The notes under the pieces: model-generated
Told to the model about the DNA's origin: nothing
Seen by the model: the letters and a program-made list of their open reading frames with translations, nothing else
Databases searched by the model: none
Source: a virus
DNA: 12,455 nucleotides
Reading direction: 5' to 3' (one strand)
Virus genome (UHGV): UHGV-0098743
In this document: positions 78 through 12,455 of the stretch, piece after piece
How positions within the stretch are numbered: the first letter of the stretch is position 1
Layout: every line of letters begins with the position of its first letter
Position numbers and translations under genes: made by a program

Positions 78-179
78 TTGCGTATCCTTTTATGTCTCCT
101 CACCGTCTGGTCGGTGTTTTGCTGAGACTTCTAACTTCCTGTTTTTGTTGGTGTTGTCCTTACACCGTCCAATCATGAT

Positions 180-223
180 TGGTGGGCTGGCGGGAGTTGA
201 ACCCGCGTCCGAAATTCCTACAT
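180..223 (-). other. ssrA: tmRNA (ssrA) 3'-terminal fragment: prophage attachment-site core
   Basis: The reverse complement reads ATGTAGGAATTTCGGACGCGGGTTCAACTCCCGCCAGCCCACCA, matching the 3' end of E. coli tmRNA as I recall it (ending CGGGUUCAACUCCCGCCAGCUCCACCA) apart from a one-base difference near the CCA end. Only about 44 nt are present; a full 363-nt ssrA would overlap the integrase ORF, so this is a partial att-core copy. Confidence 0.7.
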
Positions 224-317
224 ACCATTTTTAGCCTAATAAAAACATACATTTACTTTTAAAATCATCACGTTATTGTTTTTTGTATTTGTCGGGTTTT
301 ATGTGATTTTAAGTCTG

Positions 318-337
318 TGCCGCCAAAGTGCCGCCAT
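318..337. repeat. Tandem direct repeat GTGCCGCCA x2 (11-bp period) between the integrase stop and the att core; candidate Int arm-type site
   Basis: GTGCCGCCA at 318-326 and 329-337, read directly; the position in the att arm next to the int 3' end. Function is inferred. Confidence 0.25.
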
Positions 338-340
338 AAA

Positions 341-1366
341 TTAACGGTTCCAGTTGAGATTGTGAAGCGGGTTTTTTGTCACTGCATCTTCCAGGTGGTC
401 GGGTGCGAAGTGGGCGTAAATCATTGTCATTTTAATATCGGCGTGGCCCAGAATATCGCGCAGTACCAGTATATTTCCGCCGTTCATCATAAAATGACTG
501 GCGAAAGTATGGCGCAGAACGTGGGTGCATTGGCCCTCTGGCAAGTCAATGCTTGCCCGCTTGACTGCACGCTCAAAGGCTTTTCTGCATGGCGTGAATA
601 ACTTCCCTCGGTTCTTTGGTAACTCGTCATACAGCGCCTGAGATATAGGAACCGTTCGGTTTTTCTTGCCCTTTGTTTTGGTGTAGGTGATTCGGTATTT
701 AGATAACTGATGGCCCTGCAGGTTTTCGGCTTCACTCCAGCGGGCGCCGGTAGCTAAGCAGATTTTTGCAATCATGAGCAGGCTGGGGTTTTCTGAATCA
801 GCGCAGGCATCCAGCAGGCGTTTAATTTCTTCCGGCGCCAGGAACGCCAGTTCCCCCTCTGCGATTTTAAATGTTGGAAGCCCGGCGAGTGGGTTGGGGG
901 CTGACCAGTGGCCCAGCTTTTTCAGCGTGCCAAAAACTGATGATAGGTTGCGTTGTTCAAGGTTTACCGTGCGGGGCTTAACTGGCGACATAGGCAAGCC
1001 ATCTTCATTTTTGACTTCACCTTTTAGGCGTGCTTCACGGTATTTTGTAAAGTCACCGGCAGTCAGCTCCGAGGCAATGGGATCACCCAGGCCATTACAA
1101 ATAATGTTAAGTTTTGCCATCAGGCGCTTGGGGTCAGCAAGAGTCTGTCCGTAAAGTGAATGCCACTGCTTAATTACTTCTGACAATTGGCGCCGATCAT
1201 CCTTTTCGCCTAGCCATGGCTTTTTGTTCACTTCATCCATTGTGAAGTTTTCGAATGCTATGGCCTCGCCTTTCGTCGCAAATTGCTTGCGCACGCGCTT
1301 GCCATCGCGCCCGCTAGGGTAGCACTCACACAACCATTTCCCGTTTGGCTGTTTTCTGATGGTCAT
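341..1366 (-). CDS. int: Tyrosine recombinase / phage integrase (P2 Int-like), 341 aa
   Basis: Full-length ORF; the C-terminal catalytic region has HVLRHTFASHF and LGHADIKMTMIYAHF (R-H-R-Y signature of tyrosine recombinases). Lies next to the ssrA-derived att core and is transcribed toward it, as in P2/186-type prophages. ATG at 1366..1364. Confidence 0.93.
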   Translation of the reverse strand: MTIRKQPNGKWLCECYPSGRDGKRVRKQFATKGEAIAFENFTMDEVNKKPWLGEKDDRRQLSEVIKQWHSLYGQTLADPKRLMAKLNIICNGLGDPIASELTAGDFTKYREARLKGEVKNEDGLPMSPVKPRTVNLEQRNLSSVFGTLKKLGHWSAPNPLAGLPTFKIAEGELAFLAPEEIKRLLDACADSENPSLLMIAKICLATGARWSEAENLQGHQLSKYRITYTKTKGKKNRTVPISQALYDELPKNRGKLFTPCRKAFERAVKRASIDLPEGQCTHVLRHTFASHFMMNGGNILVLRDILGHADIKMTMIYAHFAPDHLEDAVTKNPLHNLNWNR

Positions 1367-1367
1367 A

Positions 1368-2000
1368 TCAAAGGCTCTTAATAACTTTTAAGACGTGGCC
1401 TACAACCTCGATATCATCCAGGCTGCACTCAAAAGATGATTCATCTTGATGAACTACCAATCTGTTTCCGGGGATACGGGTTAACTTCACAATACTTTTT
1501 ATTCCATCAATATCGACCAACCACACCCCATTTACTGGTGGTGTTTGGCTGCGATCCACTAGGTATGAATCACCACCGGTATTTACTAAGAGTAAGTTAC
1601 TGGAATTGGAAGGAAGCAAGCTGCTGTCAATGATTGCTTTACCTGTATCCACCAAAGAGCCGCTAGAAAGTGTCACTTTGTCAATTTCGGGAGAAACAAG
1701 GTCAGAAAGGTGTTTAACTTTGCCGGAGTTCACGAAATTGATATCTTTTTGCATGTCAATGTTTGAACCCGGCTCGCCTTGCCCTGTGGTAAGCCAGAGT
1801 AAAGAAACGCCTGTCTCAAGAGCGCACTGAATTACCCATTCTGCAGGGAAACTATCTCTTAAGTATCTGTTTGCCATGGTGCTTTTAGATGCGCCAAGAT
1901 GGTCGCACAATTGCTGTCTTGATTTGAAATCGTAGGCTGCCATTAGCCTATGGATGGCCTCTCTACCCCCGGTGTTCTCGCCTGTCTTTACTTGTATCAT
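1368..2000 (-). CDS. cI: CI-like immunity repressor (phage 186 CI type: N-terminal HTH, C-terminal S24-peptidase-like fold), 210 aa
   Basis: N-terminal segment QQLCDHLGASKSTMANRYL looks like an HTH. The C-terminal half has the topology of lambda CI/LexA C-domains (GGDSY, VKL, VVGHVLKV). Its stop lies 1 nt from the int start (cI-int operon) and it is divergent from the cox/cII operon. Whether the Ser/Lys dyad is catalytically competent cannot be judged by eye. Confidence 0.8.
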   Translation of the reverse strand: MIQVKTGENTGGREAIHRLMAAYDFKSRQQLCDHLGASKSTMANRYLRDSFPAEWVIQCALETGVSLLWLTTGQGEPGSNIDMQKDINFVNSGKVKHLSDLVSPEIDKVTLSSGSLVDTGKAIIDSSLLPSNSSNLLLVNTGGDSYLVDRSQTPPVNGVWLVDIDGIKSIVKLTRIPGNRLVVHQDESSFECSLDDIEVVGHVLKVIKSL

Positions 2001-2012
2001 TTTTTAATCCTA

Positions 2013-2041
2013 TTGACGTATCAAATATTGGATCGTAGTAT
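2013..2041 (+). promoter_or_regulatory. Candidate sigma70 early lytic promoter (pR/Pe-like) for the cox-cII operon
   Basis: TTGACG (2013-2018), 17-bp spacer, TAGTAT (2036-2041); about 80 bp upstream of the cox-like start and overlapping operator repeat R1. Confidence 0.45.
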
Positions 2042-2067
2042 CTTTTCGTATCAACTCTTGAATCGTA
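2017..2067. promoter_or_regulatory. Two 21-bp direct-repeat operator candidates (R1 2017-2037, R2 2047-2067) in the cI / cox intergenic switch region
   Basis: R1 CGTATCAAATATTGGATCGTA and R2 CGTATCAACTCTTGAATCGTA match at 18 of 21 positions, with centres 30 bp apart; each has internal partial dyad symmetry (TCAA...TTGA). R1 contains a GATC. A possible leftward promoter for cI (TTGATA -35 at 2054..2049, CAATAT -10 at 2030..2025 on the minus strand) overlaps them. Confidence 0.5.
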
Positions 2068-2119
2068 TAAAACAAGATAAAACGACGTAAACCAAACCTT
2101 AACCGAGAGATACTGCACT

Positions 2120-2368
2120 ATGAGCACTGATATTTCAATTCGTGTACCAAAAGTGATAGCGACGCCAGCCGAGTTTGCTAAGTGGGAAGGGTATTCCCGT
2201 GGTTCTGTTTATCAGATGATTCATAACGGTAAATTGGCTAACTACATTGAAAAGAAAGAAAAAAACAAAGGCCGCGTATTCATCCTTTACCTCAAGTACA
2301 AAAAAGACCAAGCAAGCAAAAACATGGACAAGTCTGCATTCAATTACAACGTTGTAGTTGGTTGTTAA
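2120..2368 (+). CDS. Cox/Apl-like excisionase and switch regulator, 82 aa
   Basis: First gene of the rightward operon, divergent from cI. The segment PAEFAKWEGYSRGSVYQMIHNGKL resembles the HTH region of P2 Cox (EFAKLIGKSTGAVRRMIDKGKL). RBS GAGAG upstream. Confidence 0.7.
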   Translation: MSTDISIRVPKVIATPAEFAKWEGYSRGSVYQMIHNGKLANYIEKKEKNKGRVFILYLKYKKDQASKNMDKSAFNYNVVVGC

Positions 2369-2400
2369 GTTCAATTATGTGAACTTTTGAGGTATGAAAC

Positions 2401-2910
2401 ATGTTTGATTATAAGATTTCCAAACATCCGCATTTTGATGAAGCCTGCCGGGCTTTCTCGCTGCGTCACAACATGGCGAAGCTGGCAGAACGCGCAGGAA
2501 TGAATGTCCAGACGCTGCGCAACAAGCTGAACCCGGAGCAACCGCATCAACTTACCCCGCCGGAGATCTGGCTGCTGACTGATATCACAGAAGACTCAAC
2601 GCTGGTTGACGGTTTTCTGGCTCAAATCCATTGCCTGCCGTGCGTGCCATTGAATGAAGTGGCAAAAGAGAAGCTGCCGCATTACGTCATGAGCGCTACT
2701 GCTGAAATCGGACGTGTTGCTGCCGGTGCCGTATCGGGTGATGTGAAAACCACCGCAGGCCGCCGCGATGTTATCAGCAGCATTAACTCTGTTACTCGTC
2801 TGATGGCACTGGCTGCCGTTTCGATGCAGGCGCGTTTACAGGCTAACCCGGCGATGGCAAGCGCGGTGGATACCGTGACGGGCCTCGGCGCTTCGTTTGG
2901 TCTGATCTGA
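2401..2910 (+). CDS. cII: Phage 186 CII-like transcriptional activator (CP76 family), 169 aa
   Basis: Same length as 186 CII (169 aa) and same position (second gene after apl/cox). N-terminal HTH-like segment NMAKLAERAGMNVQTLRNKLNP. Strong RBS GAGGT 7 nt upstream. Confidence 0.75.
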   Translation: MFDYKISKHPHFDEACRAFSLRHNMAKLAERAGMNVQTLRNKLNPEQPHQLTPPEIWLLTDITEDSTLVDGFLAQIHCLPCVPLNEVAKEKLPHYVMSATAEIGRVAAGAVSGDVKTTAGRRDVISSINSVTRLMALAAVSMQARLQANPAMASAVDTVTGLGASFGLI

Positions 2911-2917
2911 GGTGGTT

Positions 2918-3118
2918 ATGCTGACTAAAGAACCCTCTTTTGCGTCACTTCTCATAAAGCAAAGCCCGGCAATGCACTACGGTCACGGCTGGATCATGGG
3001 GAAGGATGGCAAACGCTGGCACCCGTGCCGCTCTCAGGATGAACTGCTGGCTGACCTGTCCACAACCAAACAGGGGAAATCATGGCTATTGAAGGCGCTG
3101 CAGCGACTGTCCCATTAA
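2918..3118 (+). CDS. Hypothetical small early protein, 66 aa (alternative GTG start at 2912)
   Basis: ORF in the early operon directly after cII; GGTGG just upstream of the ATG. Sits where 186 has the fil/dhr host-takeover genes, but I see no recognisable motif. Confidence 0.45.
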   Translation: MLTKEPSFASLLIKQSPAMHYGHGWIMGKDGKRWHPCRSQDELLADLSTTKQGKSWLLKALQRLSH

Positions 3119-3423
3119 GCCCCGGTAAAAGGCTGGACGCATTGAATCATATTGCGGAATTGAGAGCTAAAGTGTTTGGCCTAAATATTGAGCCGGAGCT
3201 TGAAAGGTTTATTAAAGATATGCGCGATCCACGCGACGTAAATAATAAACAGAATGAGCGGGCACTGGCAGCCATTTTTTATATGGCAAAAATTCCGGCA
3301 GAACGTCACGGCGTCAATATTAGTGATCTGACTACTGACGAAAAGCGGGAACTGGTGAAAGCAATGAATCATTTTCGTGCAGTGGTGAGCTTATTTCCCA
3401 AACGGCTAACCATGCCGAATTAA
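3082..3423 (+). CDS. Hypothetical early protein, 113 aa
   Basis: ORF with RBS AGGGGA; overlaps the upstream ORF by 37 nt; no recognisable motif. Confidence 0.5.
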   Translation: MAIEGAAATVPLSPGKRLDALNHIAELRAKVFGLNIEPELERFIKDMRDPRDVNNKQNERALAAIFYMAKIPAERHGVNISDLTTDEKRELVKAMNHFRAVVSLFPKRLTMPN

Positions 3424-3490
3424 TCCACAACAGAAATTAATGGCGTAAACCCGCCGGGCTTCTTATTGCCCAAATTCAGGAGAAACAACT

Positions 3491-3724
3491 ATGCGAAATA
3501 TTGAAACCCGTACCACTAAAACCGGACCAGATGATGCTGGTCTCAACCTGTTGCTGACTGAGGCACGCAAAGAAGAACGCCGGGGACGCGCAGATGTGAT
3601 GGCTGCGCGTCTGGATTCTTTAGCTGCTCGTATCGTGTCACGTCAGCTTAACCACACGGAAGCGGCTGAGCTGCTGCGTCAGGAAGCTGTGAAGATTCAG
3701 AACGAAGCGCAGGAGATCCACTGA
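3491..3724 (+). CDS. Hypothetical early protein, 77 aa, probably helical
   Basis: Good RBS CAGGAGAAA; its stop overlaps the next start (TGATG). Confidence 0.55.
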   Translation: MRNIETRTTKTGPDDAGLNLLLTEARKEERRGRADVMAARLDSLAARIVSRQLNHTEAAELLRQEAVKIQNEAQEIH

Positions 3725-3951
3725 TGGCTGATTCAATGGACCTTGTACAGCAGCGCGTTGAAGAAGAACGCCCGCGCCATATCCACACCGCCCGCAATAA
3801 AACGCCGGGCGTTTCCCGTGTTCTCTGCATTGATTGCGATGCGCCGATCCCGCCAGCTCGCCGCCGCGCCATTCCGGGCGTGCAGTGCTGCGTCACTTGT
3901 CAGGAAATCGCAGAGCTGAAAGGCAAACACTACAACGGGGGTGCTGTATGA
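3724..3951 (+). CDS. TraR/DksA-family C4 zinc-finger protein (P2 orf82-like), 75 aa
   Basis: CIDC-x17-CCVTC gives the C-x2-C...C-x2-C spacing typical of phage TraR/DksA zinc fingers; it is translationally coupled to neighbours on both sides. Confidence 0.75.
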   Translation: MADSMDLVQQRVEEERPRHIHTARNKTPGVSRVLCIDCDAPIPPARRRAIPGVQCCVTCQEIAELKGKHYNGGAV

Positions 3952-4808
3952 GCACTATTCTGAAATGGGCGGGAAATAAAACCTCCATCATGCCGGAACT
4001 GATTAAGCATCTTCCTGCTGGCACGCGACTGGTTGAACCTTTCGCGGGTTCATGCGCTGTAATGATGGCGACAGACTATCCTCATTATCTTGTCGCGGAT
4101 ATTAACCCAGACCTGATAAATCTTTTTAAGCATATTGCATTTGACTGCGAGAAATTTATTTCAAATTCAAAAGGATTCTTTTCAGGCACAAATAGCGCTG
4201 AGTCTTATTACAACATCCGTCAGGATTTTAATCATTCGGCTGAAACCACCGATTTCTGGAAAGCTGTATTTTTCCTTTATCTTAATCGCCATGGTTATCG
4301 TGGGTTGTGCCGCTATAATTTGAGCGGTCATTTTAATGTCCCTTACGGTAATTATAAAAATCCGTATTTTCCTGAAAGTGAAATACGCGCTTTTGCAGAA
4401 AAGGCTCAACGCGCAACGTTTATCTGTGCCAGCTATGACGAAACACTGGCGCTGCTGCAGGCTGGTGATGTTGTTTATTGTGATCCGCCATACGATGGCA
4501 CATTTAGCGGTTATCACACTGCCGGTTTTACAGAAGACGATCAGTATCATCTGGCGTCTATTCTTGAGCGCCGGTCATCAGAAGGTCATCCGGTTATCGT
4601 GTCCAACAGCGACACGTCCCTGACCCGTTCGCTTTATCGTAATTTTACCCGCCATCGCATCACTGCAAAGCGCAGCATGGGTGTGGCTGCCGGCGAGAGT
4701 AAATCTGCAGCAGAAATCATCGCCACAAAATCAGCTGGCTGGTTTGGTGTCGATTTGGCGTCCGGTCCAGATATCTCGGTGGAAACTGAGGTGCGGGCGT
4801 GGCAGTGA
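3948..4808 (+). CDS. dam: DNA adenine methyltransferase (Dam-like, N6-adenine, D12 class), 287 aa
   Basis: N-terminus [38 protein letters not shown] parallels E. coli Dam (LKWAGGK...LVEPFVGAGSV); catalytic motif [15 protein letters not shown] (DPPY). ATG at 3948 overlaps the upstream stop (ATGA). The six-frame ORF starting at 3834 is an in-frame upstream extension and is unlikely to be the true start. Confidence 0.9.
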
Positions 4809-6238
4809 GTAAATTCACATTACATAATGCACCAACCACCGGCGGCTCGAATGAGGCCGCCGTGGCCTTTTCATGGAATAACCCCAAAAAAGCGGTTAAC
4901 CCATATCTGGACCCGGCGGAAGTTGCGCCGGGGTCTGCGCTTTCAAACCTGATTGCTCTTTACGCTGCGGATAACGAGCAGGAGCAGCTGCGCCGTGAGG
5001 CGCTGAGCGATGAGGTCTGGGAACGCTATTTCTTCAATGAATCCCGTGATCCTGTCCAGCGCGAAATGGAGCAGGACCGGCTGATTAGTCGTGCCAAAAT
5101 GGCGCGCGAGCAGCAGCGTTTTAATCCCGATCTGGTCATTCTGGCTGACGTTAACGCCATGCCGTCCCATATCAGCAAGCCTCTGCTGGAGCGGATTAAA
5201 TATTTCCATAGCCTGGGCAGAGCAAAAGCCTATTCCCGCTACCTGCGCGAAACAATTAGGCCCTGTCTTGAGCGGCTGGAGCGCGTGCGTGACAGTCAGG
5301 TGTCTGCCTCTTTCCGGTTCATGGCAAGTCATGACGGGCTGGAGGGGCTGCTGGTACTGCCTGAAATGAATCAGGATCAGGTCAAGCGTCTTTCCACGCT
5401 GGTTGCGGCTCATATGAGCATGTGTCTTGATGCGGCCTGCGGTGATCTGTTTGTCAGCGACGATGTTAAACCAGAAGAAATCCGCCAGGCATGGGAAAGG
5501 GTTGCAGCAGAGGCGATGCGCCTTGAGATCATCCCGCCTGCGTTTGAGCAGTTACGCCGCAAAAAGCGTCGACGCAAGCCGGTGCCCTATGAACTGATCC
5601 CACCGTCGCTGGCGCGGATGCTGTGCGCGGACTGGTGGTATCGCAAATTGTGGCAGATGCGCTGCGAGTGGCGGGAGGAACAGCTGCGTGCTGTCTGCCT
5701 GGTCAACAAAAAAGCGTCCCCGTATGTCAGCTATGAAGCCGTGATCCACAAGCGCGAGCAGCGCCGCAAATCGCTGGAGTTCTTCCGCTCACATGAGCTG
5801 GTCAACGAAGACGGTGACACGCTGGACATGGAAGACGTGGTGGCGTATGTCCGCAACAACCCGGATAAGCTGCACCTTTTCGTTGATAACGGCTCACTGG
5901 TGGCAACCGGTGCCAGCTCTATGTCATGGGAATACCGCTACACCCTGAACGTTGTGATCGAGGATTTCAGCGGCGACCAGAATCTGCTGATGGCTCCCGT
6001 GTTGCTGTGGCTCAGCGAAAATCAGGCGGACGCCATCAACAACCCGGAGCTGCGCGAAAAACTGTTCACCTTTGAAGTGGATATTCTGCGCAATGATGTG
6101 TGCGATATCAGCCTGAATCTGCAACTGACGGAGCGTGTACTGGTCAGCACTGACGGCGGTATCTCAACGGTTGAGGCGGAGCCAGAACCCGACGAGCCAG
6201 AAGAAATGTGGACGGTGAAACGTGGAAAATCTGCATAA
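4799..6238 (+). CDS. Hypothetical protein, 479 aa, in the position where P2/186 carry replication gene A; function unknown
   Basis: Long ORF with host-like codon usage, GTG start overlapping the dam stop. I could not find a Walker A, HUH or other catalytic motif. Contains the basic stretch [17 protein letters not shown] and an acidic C-terminal tail [11 protein letters not shown]. Its stop overlaps the S-like gene by 17 nt. Confidence 0.7.
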
Positions 6239-6668
6239 AGTGGATGAGTGGCTGACAGCGCTGCTGGCGAATCTGGAGCCGGCTGCGCGTCAGCACATGA
6301 TGTGTGAACTGGCGCAGCAGCTGCGTCGAAATCAGCAGAACAACATCCGCCTGCAGCGCAACCCCGACGGAACCGGCTACGAGCCGCGCCGGGTAACAGC
6401 CCGCAGCAAAAAGGGGCGCATCAAACGCCAGATGTTTGCAAAACTTCGCACCACCAAATACCTGAAAGCTGCAGCGAGCGCGAACTCTGCGAGCGTGCAG
6501 TTTGTGGGACAAGTGCAGCGTATCGCTCGGGTACACCATTACGGCTTACGTGATCGTGTTAGCCGCAATGGACCATTAGTAATTTATAGAGAACGAAGGT
6601 TACTTGGATTCAATGAGAATAATGATTGCATTAAAAATATATTAATTATGTCTTTATTTAATACATAA
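6222..6668 (+). CDS. S: Phage virion morphogenesis / tail-completion protein (P2 gpS / Mu gpG family), 148 aa; C-terminus possibly altered by the downstream insertion
   Basis: Pattern [28 protein letters not shown] ... [20 protein letters not shown] resembles the gpS/gpG family as I remember it. The last ~20 codons ([18 protein letters not shown]) lie in abruptly AT-rich DNA. Confidence 0.55.
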
Positions 6669-6680
6669 TGTATCGTGGTA

Positions 6681-6718
6681 AAAAATAGTAAAGCCAAATG
6701 GCTGGCTAATTGCCAGCC
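6681..6718 (-). terminator. Putative Rho-independent terminator downstream of the ariB-like gene
   Basis: Stem GGCTGGC (6700-6706), loop TAATT, stem GCCAGCC (6712-6718); on the minus strand it is followed by the U-rich tract AUUUGGCUUUACUAUUUUU. Confidence 0.5.
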
Positions 6719-6724
6719 GTAACT

Positions 6725-7582
6725 CTATGAAATTAGTGATATTTTTTGATTGTAGTAATCATAATCCGCATGTTCTTCAGTAAAGAATAATTCAAAAGCC
6801 GTTAGCATATTTGAATAAAAACTATCTTTTGATATTGCAGTTTTTCTCTCATTTTTAGCTAAGTAATTGGTTATGAATCTTAATGATGCTGAGAATAGAA
6901 AGTGCCCCTTTATCCAATGCGTTATGCAAGTGTTGGCAGGAAATTGAATGTTGTTTTTTTCTGCTAACCCTACATTTCTGAAATCATCAGGAAGGGTTTG
7001 AATATAAGCATTTATCTTATCTTGACATGTTTTGTAAGAGTTTTTTGATTGCATAAATCTATCGCATGAATCACCTACTACGGAATAGCCACGCTGATTT
7101 AAATGATTGTAAATATCTAAGGCAATTAGGTCTTCAATATTGTTATAAAACTCTAATAGCCAGGAGTTTATATTTATTCCTTGGATTTCTTTGGCACTGT
7201 ATCTTCCCATGTGTTTTAACACACGGGATAGGACTTTCTCATCGACTATAGTATTTTCAATTGAGTAACCTTTTGTATAGATGATGTTTGTATGATTTAC
7301 TAAGTTGGATGAAAAATGATTCAGATCTGCATCGCGGGCAACAATTGCGTTTATTTGTCCTGATGTGATTCGCTCAATATAAGGTTCTAATGCTTCACAC
7401 CCTCCAACTTCTTGCACTTCAACACTTAGTCGACCATTTTTTTTGAAAACTATTTCCCAAAATCCAATATCATCCTCACCTTCAACATATACCATGATAT
7501 CAGCATCATAAAACATGCTGATAACATTTTCCGCCTCGTCAGACCAATTAAAGTTATCTGTTCGAATCTCATTATTGGACAT
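6725..7582 (-). CDS. ariB: DUF4435/TOPRIM-like (OLD-family nuclease-like) protein, AriB-like effector candidate of a PARIS-type defence pair, 285 aa from ATG 7582 (alternative GTG start at 7612)
   Basis: N-terminal motif MVYVEGEDD followed by AIVARDAD, i.e. the acidic E...DxD arrangement of TOPRIM/OLD nuclease domains. AT-rich codon usage. Its start overlaps the upstream ATPase gene stop by 11 nt (ATGTCCAATAA). Domain identity is from memory of family motifs, not a search. Confidence 0.75.
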   Translation of the reverse strand: MSNNEIRTDNFNWSDEAENVISMFYDADIMVYVEGEDDIGFWEIVFKKNGRLSVEVQEVGGCEALEPYIERITSGQINAIVARDADLNHFSSNLVNHTNIIYTKGYSIENTIVDEKVLSRVLKHMGRYSAKEIQGININSWLLEFYNNIEDLIALDIYNHLNQRGYSVVGDSCDRFMQSKNSYKTCQDKINAYIQTLPDDFRNVGLAEKNNIQFPANTCITHWIKGHFLFSASLRFITNYLAKNERKTAISKDSFYSNMLTAFELFFTEEHADYDYYNQKISLIS

Positions 7583-8825
7583 TGACAAGTTTCTCCATGT
7601 TAAAAATTGCACTCCTGTATTTTGAAGCTACTTCTGGAGAATGTGTGGCAGCTATTACTTGTGCATTGGGATTGAGTTTTTTGATTGCTGGGATAATGTT
7701 TCTTTGCCATTGAATATGTAGGGAGAGTTCAGGCTCATCTGTTAGGAAAATATATTGTTTTTCTCTTTGTAATAGGGTTTCTATGAATAAAATAAGTAAT
7801 TGCTTCTCACCTGAAGATAAATTTTCCTGAATTATTGGTCCGTAAGTATTCTTTATGGAAAGTATTCCGCCTTGAAAGTCAAATTCCTTATCAGTAATAA
7901 ATTCTTTTAAAATACTTAAAAATTGTTCAATGGGAGCGAAAACTAAAGATGTTTTTTCTTTAGATTTTAAAGACATTCTAATTATTTTTTGTGTCTTTCT
8001 TAGCGCTTCAATTGAGCGGATGTCAAAACCATCTTTTTTATTTTGTTTTAATTCTGCAATGGTGTGATCAATAGTGTCAACATGGAAATTTATTTTCCGA
8101 CGGACATTCATATCAATAGCGTTTAGTTGTGTGTACGCACTTAAAAGGTTTTGTTTTTCTTCCTCCTTGTTAAATTGAATGTTGTACGCCTTATCATCAA
8201 TATCATCTTTACTATATAGAATAGATGCTAAAACTTCTTTTTGAAGTTCTAATGCAATATCTCTCGCTCGTTGAGATAATTCAAGTTGATATTTTGTTAA
8301 TTCCTGCATTAATTCTGATAGTTTATAATCGACAGGGTTGATAAAGCGAGAGCCGTATTTGTCTCTAACCTCAAAGTCGTCACTATTCCTTAGTCTATAG
8401 ACGGATAAAGATGAGAGTGAAACCAGTTTTGCTAATTCTGCTCTTAACTCCTCAGTCTCTTCTTGTGCTCTGCGTCTATAACTGAGGGAGATTCTTCTGT
8501 CATCGGCGTTGAATAGTCGGATGGTATGTTTTTTTGATGAAAGTTGATACTCTATTTTAGAGAACGGTGATGCATCACTCTCGATTTTCTTAATTTTTAT
8601 TGTCTTAGTTTTCTTTTTGTCCTTTAGTTTTATTTCGGCACTATTGAAATCATTGTTGTTAATGCCATCAAGGTCAATTGATAAAATTGAATGCAAAATA
8701 TTCATAAAAGTTGTTTTGCCGGTTCCATTCCTTCCAATGATGATGTTTACATCATCATTAAAAGAGCAAAGAGCATTTAATCTTTGCCAAAAACCATTGA
8801 TAGCGATGCTTTGTATTTTATACAT
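7572..8825 (-). CDS. ariA: ABC-type ATPase (AAA_15/AAA_21, OLD/SMC-like), AriA-like sensor candidate of a PARIS-type defence pair, 417 aa from ATG 8825 (TTG at 8828 possible)
   Basis: Walker A GRNGTGKTT near the N-terminus; a long insert domain; C-terminal ABC signature-like SSGEKQLL, Walker B IFLTDEPELSLH and H-loop ATHSPEV. Strong RBS AAGGAG 7 nt before the ATG. AT-rich. Confidence 0.82.
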   Translation of the reverse strand: MYKIQSIAINGFWQRLNALCSFNDDVNIIIGRNGTGKTTFMNILHSILSIDLDGINNNDFNSAEIKLKDKKKTKTIKIKKIESDASPFSKIEYQLSSKKHTIRLFNADDRRISLSYRRRAQEETEELRAELAKLVSLSSLSVYRLRNSDDFEVRDKYGSRFINPVDYKLSELMQELTKYQLELSQRARDIALELQKEVLASILYSKDDIDDKAYNIQFNKEEEKQNLLSAYTQLNAIDMNVRRKINFHVDTIDHTIAELKQNKKDGFDIRSIEALRKTQKIIRMSLKSKEKTSLVFAPIEQFLSILKEFITDKEFDFQGGILSIKNTYGPIIQENLSSGEKQLLILFIETLLQREKQYIFLTDEPELSLHIQWQRNIIPAIKKLNPNAQVIAATHSPEVASKYRSAIFNMEKLVNVQ

Positions 8826-8868
8826 CAACTTACTCCTTGTTTTGGTTGAGTCGAACTTATCAACTGTT

Positions 8869-8886
8869 TGTACCAGCTATAACACA
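8869..8886 (+). promoter_or_regulatory. TGT-N12-ACA dyad upstream of V: possible Ogr/Delta-type late-activator site (P_V-like)
   Basis: TGT (8869-8871), 12 nt, ACA (8884-8886), read directly. P2 late promoters carry this dyad near -55. Here the dyad centre is only about 56 bp from the V start codon, so the spacing is tight and this may be coincidence. Confidence 0.3.
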
Positions 8887-8915
8887 ATTATGCTGGTTCG
8901 TACGAATCATTTCAA
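8886..8915 (-). promoter_or_regulatory. Candidate sigma70 promoter for the ariA-ariB operon
   Basis: On the minus strand: TTGAAA (8915..8910), 18-bp spacer, ATAATT (8891..8886); predicted leader about 55 nt to the ariA ATG. Confidence 0.35.
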
Positions 8916-8933
8916 ATGTTCAATATAGGCAGT

Positions 8934-9512
8934 ATGAACACACAACTTACCGAAATCATGCGCCTTATCACCAATCTGATCCGTACCGGCACTGTGACCG
9001 AAGTGGACCGGAAAAAGTGGCTGTGTCGGGTGAAAGTGGGCGAGCTTGAAACTAACTGGATTAACTGGCTGACGCTGCGCGCCGGTGGTGCCCGTACATG
9101 GTGGTGTCCGTCGCCGGATGAGCAGGTGGTGTTGCTGAGCATGGGCGGCAATCTGGAAACCGCTTTTGTGCTGCCCGCTATCTACTCCAATCAGTTTCCG
9201 CCACCGTCGGATTCCGTGGACGGCTGCGTGACGGAGTACCCGGACGGGGGATGGTTTGAGTATGAACCCGCCACCGGACGGTGGCATGTCAGGGGCATCA
9301 AATCCATGGTGATCGAGGCATCAGACAGTGTCACCTACAAAACCGGTGAGTTTGTGGTGGAGGCTGACACCACGCGCATTAACAGCGAGGTGGTGATCAA
9401 TGGCGGCGTCACCCAGGGCGGCGGCGCAATGAGTTCTAACGGGATCGTAGTTGATGACCATGAGCATACTGGCGTTCTGAAAGGCGGCGACAACACGGGG
9501 GGACCGGTATGA
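8934..9512 (+). CDS. V: Baseplate assembly protein V (P2 gpV-like spike), 192 aa (ORF opens at 8916; 8934 is the homologous start)
   Basis: N-terminus MNTQLTEIMRLITNLIRTGTVTEVD parallels P2 gpV (MNTLANIQELARALRNMIRTG...); conserved WLTLRAGGARTWWCPS and C-terminal HEHTG. Stop overlaps the W start (ATGA). Confidence 0.85.
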   Translation: MNTQLTEIMRLITNLIRTGTVTEVDRKKWLCRVKVGELETNWINWLTLRAGGARTWWCPSPDEQVVLLSMGGNLETAFVLPAIYSNQFPPPSDSVDGCVTEYPDGGWFEYEPATGRWHVRGIKSMVIEASDSVTYKTGEFVVEADTTRINSEVVINGGVTQGGGAMSSNGIVVDDHEHTGVLKGGDNTGGPV

Positions 9513-9868
9513 CGTTGTATATCGGTATGAGCAGGAATGACGGGCAGACCATTGCAGATACAGACCATCTGCGCCAGTCGGTGCGGGATATTCTGCTGAC
9601 GCCGCAGGGCAGTCGTCTTGCGCGTCGGGAATATGGTTCCCTGCTGTCTGCCCTGATAGACCAGCCGCAGACCCCGGCGCTGCGCCTGCAGATTATGTCT
9701 GCGGTCTATGTGGCGCTGAACCGTTGGGAGCCGCGCCTTACGCTGGACTCCATCACCATCAACGGCAATTTTGATGGCTCTATGGTGGTTGAACTTACCG
9801 GACACGGCAATAACGGCGCACCGGTTTCCCTTTCCGTATCAACAGGAGCAGACAATGGCAGTCATTGA
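9509..9868 (+). CDS. W: Baseplate assembly protein W (P2 gpW / GP25-like), 119 aa
   Basis: Size and position between V and J; gpW-like N-terminal region (DLRQSVRDILLTPQGSRLARREYGS). Confidence 0.85.
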   Translation: MTLYIGMSRNDGQTIADTDHLRQSVRDILLTPQGSRLARREYGSLLSALIDQPQTPALRLQIMSAVYVALNRWEPRLTLDSITINGNFDGSMVVELTGHGNNGAPVSLSVSTGADNGSH

Positions 9869-10763
9869 CCTTTCCCGGCTACCGCCGCCGCAGATTGTGG
9901 ATGTGCCGGACTTTGAGGCATTGCTGGCAGAACGCAAGGCCGCCTTTGTGGCCCTCCATCCGGCTGATGAACAGGAGGCTGTTATGCGCACGTTAGCGCT
10001 GGAGTCAGAACCTGTCACCAAACTGCTGCAGGAAAATACTTACCGCGAAATCCTGCTGCGTCAGCGAATTAATGAGGCTGCGCAGGCGGTCATGGTGGCC
10101 TATTCCATGGGAAATGACCTTGAACAACTGGCAGGTAACTGCAACGTGAAGCGCCTGACGGTAGTCCCTGCAGATAATGACTCGGTGCCGCCGGTCGCCG
10201 CAGTGATGGAAAGTGATGAAGCATTACGCCAGCGCATTCCTGCAGCATTTGAGGGGCTGTCCGTTGCAGGGCCGACGGGAGCCTATGAGTTCCACGCCAG
10301 AAGTGCCGACGGGCGGGTGGCTGATGCCAGCGCAACCAGTCCGGCACCGGCAGAGGTGGTGCTTACCGTGCTGAGCCGTGAGGGGGACGGTACGGCAGGG
10401 GCTGACCTGCTGGCGGTGGTTGAGCAGGCGCTTAACAGTGAAAAAGTTCGCCCGGTGGCAGACCGCCTGACGGTGCGCAGCGCAGAAATTATTCCGTACA
10501 GCGTGGACGCAACGATCTTCCTTTATCCGGGGCCGGAGGCTGAGCCGGTGATGGCAGAAGCAAAAGCCAGTCTGCAGAAATACATCGCCAGTCAGACGCG
10601 GCTGGGACGTGATATCCGCCGCAGCGCCATTTATGCCGCGTTGCATGTGGAGGGCGTCCAGCGTGTGGAGCTGGCGTCCCCGCAGGGTGATGTGGTGCTG
10701 GATAAGACGCAGGCGGCATCCTGTACTGAATGGAGCATCATCAACGGGGGCACGGATGAATAG
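9855..10763 (+). CDS. J: Baseplate assembly protein J (P2 gpJ-like), 302 aa
   Basis: Starting at ATG 9855 (RBS AGGAG at 9844-9848) gives 302 aa, the same as P2 gpJ; conserved order V-W-J-I-H. The longer ORF from 9771 is an in-frame extension overlapping W. Confidence 0.88.
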   Translation: MAVIDLSRLPPPQIVDVPDFEALLAERKAAFVALHPADEQEAVMRTLALESEPVTKLLQENTYREILLRQRINEAAQAVMVAYSMGNDLEQLAGNCNVKRLTVVPADNDSVPPVAAVMESDEALRQRIPAAFEGLSVAGPTGAYEFHARSADGRVADASATSPAPAEVVLTVLSREGDGTAGADLLAVVEQALNSEKVRPVADRLTVRSAEIIPYSVDATIFLYPGPEAEPVMAEAKASLQKYIASQTRLGRDIRRSAIYAALHVEGVQRVELASPQGDVVLDKTQAASCTEWSIINGGTDE

Positions 10764-11361
10764 CCTGTTGCCGCCGGGTTCGTCGCCGCTTGAGCGCCGA
10801 CTGGCGCAGACCTGCAGCGGGATTTCCGATCTGCAGGTATCGCTGCGTGATTTGTGGAATCCGTCAATCTGCCCGGTCAGATTCCTGCCTTATCTGGCCT
10901 GGGCGTTTTCTGTTGACCGCTGGGATGAGAGCTGGACAGAAAGCGTCAAGCGCCGCGTTGTGCAGGACGCTTTTTATATCCATCAGCACAAGGGGACAAC
11001 CAGCGCCGTGCGGCGCGTGGTGGAGCCGTTCGGCTTTCTGATCCGCATCATTGAGTGGTGGCAGACTGGCGAAATACCAGGGACGTTCCGTCTGGATATT
11101 GGCGTGCAGGACCAGGGCATAACAGAAGAAACCTATCTGGAGCTGGAGCGCCTGATCGGTGACGCCAAACCGTGCAGCCGTCACCTGGTTGGTATGTCCA
11201 TCAACCTGCAGACAGGTGGCCCGTATTTTGTGGGCGCAGCCACCTACACCGGCGAAGAAATCACGATCTACCCGTATATCAACGAAACCATTATTTCCGG
11301 CGGCACCGCTTATGAGGGCGGGGCGGTCCATGTTATTGACACGATGAGAGTGAACCCATGA
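10756..11361 (+). CDS. I: Baseplate/tail protein I (P2 gpI-like), 201 aa
   Basis: Position between J and H; ATG at 10756 overlaps the J stop; the longer ORF from 10609 is an out-of-context extension. Confidence 0.82.
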   Translation: MNSLLPPGSSPLERRLAQTCSGISDLQVSLRDLWNPSICPVRFLPYLAWAFSVDRWDESWTESVKRRVVQDAFYIHQHKGTTSAVRRVVEPFGFLIRIIEWWQTGEIPGTFRLDIGVQDQGITEETYLELERLIGDAKPCSRHLVGMSINLQTGGPYFVGAATYTGEEITIYPYINETIISGGTAYEGGAVHVIDTMRVNP

Positions 11362-12455
11362 GCGCAAAATTTTACACCCTGCTGACGGATATCGGCGCGG
11401 CGAAACTGGTAAGCGCCGCCGCGCTCGGTGTCCCACTAAAAATTACCCATATGGCGGTGGGCAGCGGTGGTGGTATGCTGCCCACACCCAACGCGCAACA
11501 GACCGCGTTAGTGGCTGAGGAACGCCGCGCAGCGCTGAATATGCTGTATATCGACCCACAGAACAGCAGCCAGATTATTGCTGAGCAGGTGATCCCGGAA
11601 AATGAGGGCGGGTGGTGGATTCGTGAAGTCGGCCTGTTTGATGAAACAGGTGCGCTAATTGCTGTGGGAAACTGCCCGGAGAGCTACAAGCCGAAGCTGG
11701 CGGAGGGCAGCGGACGCACGCAGACCGTGCGAATGGTACTGATTACCAGCAGCACGGATAACATCACCCTGAAAATTGACCCCGCTGTGGTTCTGGCAAC
11801 CCGCAAATATGTGGATGATAAGGTGCTGGAACTTAAGGTGTATGTGGATGACCTGATGGCAAAGCATCTTGCTGCGGTTGATCCTCATTCGCAATATGCA
11901 CCAAAAGACAGTCCGACTCTGACAGGCATGCCTAAAACGCCAACGCCACCGGCAGGAAACAACAGCACCCTGATTGCCAGTACAGCCTTTGTACAGGCCG
12001 CTATTCTTGCCATGATAGGTGGCGCACCGGCAACGCTGGATACGCTGAAAGAAATTGCGGCAGCTATCAATAATGACCCGAATTTCAGTACCACCATTAA
12101 CAATGCGCTGGCACTGAAAGCACCACTGGCAAGCCCAGCCCTGACCGGAACGCCAACGGCTCCGACTGCGGCGCAGACTGTGAACAATACGCAGATTGCC
12201 ACTACAGCATTTGTGAAGGCAGCTATTGCCGGGCTGGTTGGTTCATCGCCGGAGGCGCTGGACACACTGAATGAACTGGCAGCTGCGCTGGGGAATGATC
12301 CTAACTTTGCGACAACAGTGATGAACGCGCTGGCGGGGAAACAGCCCCTCGATGCCACTTTGACTAACCTCAGCGGGAAAAGTGTTTCAGCCCTTCTACA
12401 ATACCTTGGTTTGGGAGAAGCGGCAACGAGGAACGTCGGAACGGATACCGGGCAA
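11358..12455 (+). CDS. H: Tail fibre protein H (P2 gpH-like), 5' part only; the ORF runs off the end of the window
   Basis: N-terminus MSAKFYTLLTDIGAAKLVSAA...MAVGSGGGMLP...ESYKPKLAEGSGRTQTVRMV...YVDDKV closely parallels the conserved P2 gpH N-terminal domain. No stop through 12455 (366 codons). Absent from the ORF track only because it is open-ended. Confidence 0.88.
   Translation, partial: MSAKFYTLLTDIGAAKLVSAAALGVPLKITHMAVGSGGGMLPTPNAQQTALVAEERRAALNMLYIDPQNSSQIIAEQVIPENEGGWWIREVGLFDETGALIAVGNCPESYKPKLAEGSGRTQTVRMVLITSSTDNITLKIDPAVVLATRKYVDDKVLELKVYVDDLMAKHLAAVDPHSQYAPKDSPTLTGMPKTPTPPAGNNSTLIASTAFVQAAILAMIGGAPATLDTLKEIAAAINNDPNFSTTINNALALKAPLASPALTGTPTAPTAAQTVNNTQIATTAFVKAAIAGLVGSSPEALDTLNELAAALGNDPNFATTVMNALAGKQPLDATLTNLSGKSVSALLQYLGLGEAATRNVGTDTGQ
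11910..12353 (+). repeat. Tandem duplicated ~74-codon tail-fibre repeat module inside H
   Basis: Units starting SPTLTGMPKTPTPP... (11910) and SPALTGTPTAPTAA... (12132) align over 74 aa with about half the residues identical, including TAFV.AAI, LDTL.E.AAA, NDPNF.TT and NALA.K. Confidence 0.7.

Follow-up and report, generated by a model that had tools for sequence, protein, structure and literature searches.

Two repeats three helical turns apart as candidate CI operators in the 186-type lysis/lysogeny switch of a defective P2-like prophage

What do two near-identical repeats do in the short gap between a leftward immunity repressor gene and a rightward early operon, and to which of the known switches of P2-like phages do they belong? 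The question arises in the window, that is, the whole stretch of 12,455 nucleotides analysed here (UHGV virus genome UHGV-0098743). An earlier note, made from the letters alone, had described a 119-bp gap between cI and a cox-like gene and a 186-like gene set around it. We found the same gap length between cI and what we call the apl-like gene, and the domain matches of CI, CII and Fil bear out the 186-like gene set. The genes that matter for what follows are these:

1368-2000, minus strand: cI, immunity repressor of 210 aa, 186 CI family (PF07022, PF16452)
2120-2368, plus strand: apl/cox-like gene of 82 aa, which opens the pR operon (30% identity to 186 Apl)
2401-2910, plus strand: cII, 169 aa (PF06892, E 3.8e-44)
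3948-4808, plus strand: dam, D12-class N6-adenine methyltransferase (PF02086, E 5.1e-71), further downstream in the pR operon

Pfam matches identify CII (PF06892), Fil, DUF5347 and the D12-class Dam methylase downstream of the switch and a tyrosine integrase upstream of it. The Apl-like protein aligns to 186 Apl with a pairwise E of 2e-9 (30% identity), and its gene is labelled apl or excisionase in relatives. We conclude that the region is the lysis/lysogeny control region of a defective P2/186-like prophage. From cI to cII, the closest sequenced phages are Yersinia phage MLG42 (87.9%), SopEPhi and SEN8 (83.4%) and the Klebsiella Kp4845-2 prophage (81%). Judged by sequence, the switch shares its immunity type with the Salmonella phages SopEPhi and SEN8 and with Yersinia phage MLG42. 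The switch itself is an ordinary heteroimmune member of the 186 family, with near-identical copies already present in sequenced phages.

The window as a whole is a composite or deleted prophage, with a junction near 5839-5842. The junction falls inside a 479-aa open reading frame (4799-6238), which resembles a replication protein A gene at its start and, in its translation, a tail completion protein of the P2 gpR type at its end. One E. coli genome agrees with positions 179-5842 at 100%, and others agree with positions 5839-12420 at 99.9%; among complete E. coli genomes, none was found to carry the two segments together at one place. The window lacks head, lysis and packaging genes. Between tail genes, on the minus strand at 6725-8828, lies a two-gene insert whose 418-aa ATPase matches AriA (E 1e-36) and whose 295-aa DUF4435 protein matches AriB (E 9.4e-23); this insert is a PARIS-type anti-phage defence pair.

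Around the cI-apl gap, the following promoters and regulatory elements were located:

2013-2041, plus strand: pR, early lytic promoter, TTGACG (2013-2018), 17-bp spacer, TAGTAT (2036-2041), start predicted near 2048
2110-2138, minus strand: candidate pL for cI-int, TTGAAA (2138-2133), 17-bp spacer, CAGTAT (2115-2110), start predicted near 2103
2068-2104, plus strand: four direct TWAAMC hexamers at 2068, 2078, 2088 and 2099 (spacing 10, 10 and 11 bp), candidate Apl sites
2369-2428, minus strand: putative pE/CII region, -10 CATAAT (complement of 2373-2378) and an ATGTTTG...CAAACAT dyad at the cII start

A consensus scan recovered the rightward promoter TTGACG-17-TAGTAT that had been proposed to overlap the repeats; it matches the consensus at 9 of 12 positions and lies where pR is annotated in 186. 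The leftward cI promoter that had been suggested to overlap the repeats as well is not credible. The sole minus-strand match there, TTGATA-17-AATGAT (2024 to 1996), has its -10 on the cI start codon, so that transcription would begin inside cI, and we rejected it. The better candidate for pL lies at the apl start, just where pL is annotated in 186 with respect to the apl ATG (TTGCGA-17-CATGAT), and this stretch is nearly invariant in all relatives, even those with a CI just 50-60% identical. The predicted starts of pR (about 2048) and pL (about 2103) would then face each other at a distance of about 55 bp, and in P2-like phages the promoter starts are 40-60 bp apart (PMC7498355). Between the two promoters, the TWAAMC hexamers are conserved in relatives; the Apl operators of 186 are likewise 6-bp direct repeats, 10-11 bp apart, between pR and pL (PMC7498355). 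Furthermore, the junction of apl and cII matches the annotated pE, FR and CII-site region of 186, both in the dyad at the cII start and in the CATAAT -10.

The repeats themselves, R1 (2017-2037, CGTATCAAATATTGGATCGTA) and R2 (2047-2067, CGTATCAACTCTTGAATCGTA), agree with what the earlier note had reported of them, namely two near-identical 21-bp elements about three helical turns apart: they are identical at 18 of 21 positions, and their starts are 30 bp apart. In 2000 dinucleotide-preserving shuffles of the 119-bp region, the best non-overlapping pair of 21-mers agreed at 16 of 21 positions at most, and 18/21 was never reached (0/2000). The full 21-bp pattern, expected 0.02 times in the whole window, was observed twice.

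We examined their conservation in relatives with a CI 82-100% identical to that of the window (80 IMG/VR loci, five bacterial genome loci and six phage or E. coli records), which gave 59 distinct sequences over 1971-2149, the window's own included. The intergenic length is exactly 119 bp in every relative, and the 59 sequences contain no indels despite many substitutions, which argues for strict spacing constraints over the whole switch. Positions 2013-2043, comprising pR and R1, are invariant or nearly so; since the whole promoter is invariant, the conservation of the first repeat is uninformative. In R2, only 2051-2064 (TCAAnTnTTGAATC) is conserved, with 2055 and 2057 free, and the surrounding positions 2044-2050 and 2065-2067 vary freely. 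The repeat under selection therefore measures about 14 bp, with the sequence TCAAnTnTTGRATC, and the 21-bp length, with its CGTA/GTA ends, is a peculiarity of this lineage. Of the expectation that the repeats be conserved in related prophages, the part concerning the 14-bp core thus held in these 59 sequences, while the outer ends of R2 vary. The two copies of the core are:

2021-2034, plus strand: O1, core of R1 (TCAAATATTGGATC), inside the pR spacer, dyad centre at 2026
2051-2064, plus strand: O2, core of R2 (TCAACTCTTGAATC), about +4 to +17 of the pR transcript, dyad centre at 2056, a conserved block

Each core holds a small dyad, TCAA-N3-TTGR, which ends in TTGA in O2 and in TTGG in O1. 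The symmetry is weak: a conserved ATC follows the right arm but has no counterpart on the left, where the flank is free, and the two copies point in one direction. Besides these two copies, no third was found at 20-21 or 30 bp on either side of the pair. Whole-genome motif scans of MLG42 and SEN8 returned no further strong copies, the sole conserved weak match lying inside cI. The region is the immunity switch, as the earlier note had it, and the repeats, placed on pR with a core kept while its flanks drift, are its best operator candidates. Operators at these positions are plausible on the grounds of conservation, and repressor sites on a lytic promoter would be ordinary.

Altogether, we favour, at a probability of roughly 0.7, the reading that this is a 186-type lysis/lysogeny switch of a P2-like prophage in which the two repeats are CI dimer operators three turns apart. 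From the observed features, their conservation and the protein families present, we infer the binding of CI to the repeats, the activities of the promoters and the oligomeric state of the repressor. In such a switch, pR would fire rightward into apl-cII-fil...dam, and a weak pL inside the apl start would fire leftward into cI-int, head-on with pR. The two repeats would be the strong CI operators, O1 filling the pR spacer and O2 covering the first transcribed bases. One CI dimer would take each operator dyad (TCAA-N3-TTGR) through its N-terminal helix-turn-helix, and the C-terminal oligomerisation domain would join the two dimers along the same face of the DNA over a distance of 30 bp, about three turns. 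CI at either site would exclude RNA polymerase from pR, and the silencing of pR would also relieve the head-on interference with pL, as in 186. Apl would occupy the four hexamers between pR and pL.

The weak symmetry of the core also admits another arrangement, in which the repeats are true direct repeats as in P2, each an asymmetric 14-bp half-site, and a CI oligomer sits head-to-tail around the -10. The common orientation of the two copies, the one-sided ATC that they share and the lack of a conserved symmetric left flank would all fit, as would the placement: in P2, too, O1 lies within the spacer and O2 directly behind the -10; half-sites of the P2 type are 22-34 bp apart (PMC1904268). We nevertheless consider it unlikely. 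The repressor is not of the P2 C type, a TCAA/TTGA dyad is conserved in each unit around middle bases that are free, the binding form of 186 CI is the dimer (PMC3675496), and perfect palindromes occupy the same place in related CI groups. Indeed, relatives with a more divergent CI carry other elements in the pR spacer, some of them clearly dyad-symmetric: ATCTTGAATCAAGAT in the Cartapus type, with a second, related element 31 bp downstream, and CACTTAAAGTG in locus L021, with a second dyad, ATTCCCGCAATGGGAAT, about 29 bp downstream. The annotated CI sites FL and FR of 186 are visibly inverted repeats as well (TTCAC-N5-GTGAA). Against the operator assignment itself, a comparison of the similarity of site 1 and site 2 within and between CI groups showed no significant difference (mean of 8.1/12 within the own group, 7.1 with others).

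We also considered that the repeats may not be repressor sites at all, but features of the promoter or leader, or sites for IHF, Apl or another protein. The IHF consensus is WATCAANNNNTTR, and both TATCAA-N4-TGG and TATCAA-N4-TGA are one mismatch away from it. The conservation pattern led us to reject an IHF site, however: the WA that IHF needs at 2049-2050 varies, and the ATC at 2062-2064, which IHF does not need, is conserved. Apl is a poor candidate as well, its hexamers forming a separate and clearly phased set at 2068-2104. As for an RNA element in the repeats or the leader, we rejected this reading, as the pR leader gave no RNA structure signal (z 0.18) and the window had no match to an Rfam family.

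What speaks more generally for something other than CI is that groups A, B and E all have similar elements, TCAATATTGAAT and GTATCATTATTG, ahead of the ogr-like gene. Upstream of this ogr/B-like late activator gene, GTTCTCAATATTGAAT and GTATCATTATTG(C/A)GAT lie 22 bp apart and resemble the pR repeats (L037 25460-25500, L038 34700-34770, L036 21010-21070, L039 357-426 and L040 22499-22568). The pair is conserved across immunity groups A and B; in Cartapus (group E), the first element is kept and the second is replaced by a palindrome, ATCATTGCAATGAT. Their presence in all three groups shows that such sequences need not be specific to one group, and we did not retain them as support for group-specific CI binding by analogy with 186 pB. 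With the evidence on IHF, Apl and the leader against it, a role of the repeats outside repression appears very unlikely to us, and we keep the reading of the repeats as CI operators.

The repressor itself belongs with 186 CI. It matches PF07022 (E 5.9e-31, 107 bits) and PF16452 (E 1.8e-29, 102 bits), the solved structures that it matches best, 2FJR and 2FKD, are entries of 186 CI, and it is 34% identical to 186 CI, from which it differs by a longer inter-domain linker. We rejected the longer linker (210 versus 192 aa for the whole protein) as the cause of the three-turn spacing, as it is contradicted by the short-linker group D (CI of 187-191 aa), in which hand inspection places the half-sites about 28-31 bp apart as well.

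The recognition helix, SKSTMANRYLRD, comprises cI residues 38-49 (about 1854-1889 of the window). It is identical in the window's own group, the Fels-2 group and the L345 group (loci L007, L015-L020 and L345-L360), whose pR regions are strongly different. Other CI clusters carry one to four changes in the helix (Y to V, M or N), as in SKSTLATRYMRD of cluster D and SKGTLANRYMRD of locus L025. The same helix facing unlike pR regions weighs against our operator assignment and means that specificity does not lie in the helix alone, or that operators have been misassigned. For the groups that share the helix, either specificity would reside elsewhere in the N-terminal domain or some of these groups would be cross-immune. 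CI immunity classes of this type have been described as little studied (PMC3448106), and our literature searches found no report of operators for CI proteins of the SopEPhi/Fels-2 type.

Beyond pR, one further site within the window may be bound by CI, in the manner of the distal sites FL and FR of the 186-type switch, which lie about 300 bp away and serve looping:

1756-1766, no strand assigned: candidate distal operator, FL-like (TCAATGTTTGA), an exact TCAA-N3-TTGA inside the cI linker

The pattern xCA AAx xTT GAx is preserved at codons 79-82 in 64 of 67 distinct cI genes, although the residues that these codons specify vary (S/P/T/A, N/K, D/E). Because the neighbouring cI codons are also well conserved, this makes 1756-1766 a weak candidate for a distal CI site. 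Just after apl, at 2369-2385, GTTCAATTATGTGAAC is closer to 186 FR (TTCACTTTATGTGAA) than to the local operator motif, overlapping the putative pE -10. It might be a relic; alternatively, it may represent a second type of CI site, as 186 CI recognises two sequence types.

At the R position of the core, O1 and O2 differ, which brings in the phage's own methyltransferase gene:

2031-2034, no strand assigned: GATC, Dam target, at positions 13-16 of the pR spacer, one base upstream of the -10 and within O1

It had been remarked before that R1 contains a GATC and that the element encodes its own Dam. Both statements are correct, the former for 2031-2034, which is the only GATC in the intergenic region, and the latter for the D12-class methyltransferase at 3948-4808. 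At the R position of the core, the window's own group has G in O1 in 58 of 59 sequences, which creates the GATC, and A in O2 in 56 of 59.

We extended the comparison to 339 loci, clustered by CI at 75% identity, and looked in the flanks of each for a homologue of the window's Dam. Spacer positions 13-16 read GATC in each of the six clusters that have more than one member and carry dam. Counted over distinct intergenic sequences, it was found in 50/51 of cluster A, 23/25 of D, 14/14 of E, 9/10 of B and 4/4 of D'; in cluster F, where a misplaced cI start defeated the pattern match, GATC was read by inspection of the sequences. None of the five clusters without dam has it (186 type 0/26, L167 0/22, L345 0/12, and L194 and L197); the recognition helix of L345 is the same as that of the CI studied here. 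When nine groups of the dam type were aligned on their -35, spacer positions 13-16 were always GATC, and positions 1-12 were unrelated between groups. The exceptions are L178, L199 and L343, which carry dam without the GATC, and SopEPhi, which has GATT together with a dam homologue.

A GATC that is kept across different operators and that tracks the phage dam is not simply the specificity of one repressor. In this altered form, the methylation effect that the earlier note had called conceivable gains an indirect, comparative argument. We therefore asked whether the GATC in O1 might be a functional Dam switch, in which methylation of A2032 and its partner alters the use of pR or the affinity of CI, and in which phage Dam made from the pR operon would bear on the lysis/lysogeny decision. 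This proposal would add to the reading of the repeats as CI operators and would not replace it. We regard it as possible though doubtful. The constancy of spacer positions 13-16 next to an unrelated 1-12 in every multi-member dam-carrying cluster, the absence of GATC from dam-less clusters, same-helix L345 among them, and the G in O1 but A in O2 all favour it. On the other hand, the contrast stands on a small number of independent lineages, with maybe two or three transitions, and pR and dam sit in the same early region and, being linked, may simply have been inherited together. Moreover, the exceptions above have to be accommodated, and the window shows no excess of GATC (36 observed, 43 expected). 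The hosts, too, weigh against it, being enterobacteria, which as far as known have a Dam of their own.

The association is suggestive, not proof, and a link between Dam and pR is possible. Taken one step further, phage Dam, made from pR, might set the methylation of the pR GATC and thereby tune polymerase or repressor, which would amount to an epigenetic feedback loop; this we consider rather improbable. If true, such a loop would give the widespread prophage dam genes a function, and we know of no explanation for the role of dam in P2/186-like prophages. Literature searches for a link between Dam and switches of this kind found no report. A fixed GATC in pR that tracks the phage dam across many heteroimmune lineages yields a simple, testable hypothesis.

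Two further observations concern GATC elsewhere. In group D, a direct repeat formed by CGATCGTAT and CGATCCGTAT contains another conserved GATC, about 34 bp downstream of the one in pR (loci L023, L024 and L027 and the IMG/VR loci of CI cluster D, within L201-L280). In the Pe spacer of P2, O1 (GTTTAGAT) extends into a GATC, which precedes the TAGTAT -10 by four bases (L361, 1395-1403); this -10 is identical to the one found here, and to our knowledge P2 has no dam gene.

How does this switch compare with known systems? For the GATC, the nearest parallel is pIN of IS10, a Dam-sensitive promoter with a GATC inside its core promoter elements. Here too the GATC lies inside the core promoter and could make promoter use dependent on methylation, but it is located in the spacer just upstream of the -10 and inside a putative operator.

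As for P2, the Pe-Pc region shares with our locus a pair of repeats in the same orientation, the first within the early promoter's spacer and the second directly behind the -10, as well as the TAGTAT hexamer itself and, with the candidate pL, the face-to-face promoters. In P2 and WPhi, the operator repeats flank the -10 (PMC1904268). The likeness does not extend to the proteins. P2 C is a 99-aa HTH_3 protein that falls below the PF07022 threshold, lacks the C-terminal domain of CI and aligns solely to residues 19-79 of the CI studied here. Its half-sites measure 8 bp, with O1 and O2 22 bp apart (PMC1904268) instead of 30 bp, and neither cII nor pE is annotated in the P2 switch region.

The likeness to 186 goes further. 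The CI proteins have the same two domains, cI-int runs leftward and apl-cII-fil rightward, pR and the candidate pL face each other with pL inside the apl start, direct repeats of the Apl type lie 10-11 bp apart between the promoters, and cII is present together with a putative pE region. The earlier note had taken the switch for a hybrid with operators in the style of P2 C. This view is not supported, as CI has both 186 CI domains and both cII and a candidate pE are present. Since the protein, the cII/pE module and the weak dyad inside each repeat are all of the 186 type, and since the three-turn pair has a precedent in 186 pB, the switch is a heteroimmune member of the 186 family and not a P2/186 hybrid.

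It nonetheless differs from 186 in several respects. Its operators have no sequence relation to those of 186. 186 pR lacks the GATC, and no dam homologue was found near cI in loci of the 186 type. Likewise, against SopEPhi, SEN8, vB_YpM_MLG42 and the Klebsiella Kp4845-2 prophages, whose DNA from cI to cII is 81-88% identical, with the same 119-bp gap and the same O1 and O2 core, the window differs in the flanks of O2, and SopEPhi has GATT for GATC.

The clearest difference from 186 concerns the geometry of the operators. 186 CI acts as dimers assembled into a heptamer of dimers, which bind three operators at pR, two helical turns apart and spanning 56 bp, and single 17-bp sites at FL and FR (PMC3675496). 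Here, we find two clear sites three turns apart. A pair of similar CI sites at about this distance is known from 186 pB, where the sites are 32 bp apart, centre to centre (PMC3675496). However, pB is another promoter, at which CI controls the late activator gene, and its spacing distorts the DNA and has been described as not favoured, whereas the three-turn arrangement found here stands at the main lytic promoter. A main lytic promoter apparently equipped with two three-turn sites, in place of the three two-turn sites of 186, bears on how the CI wheel contacts DNA.
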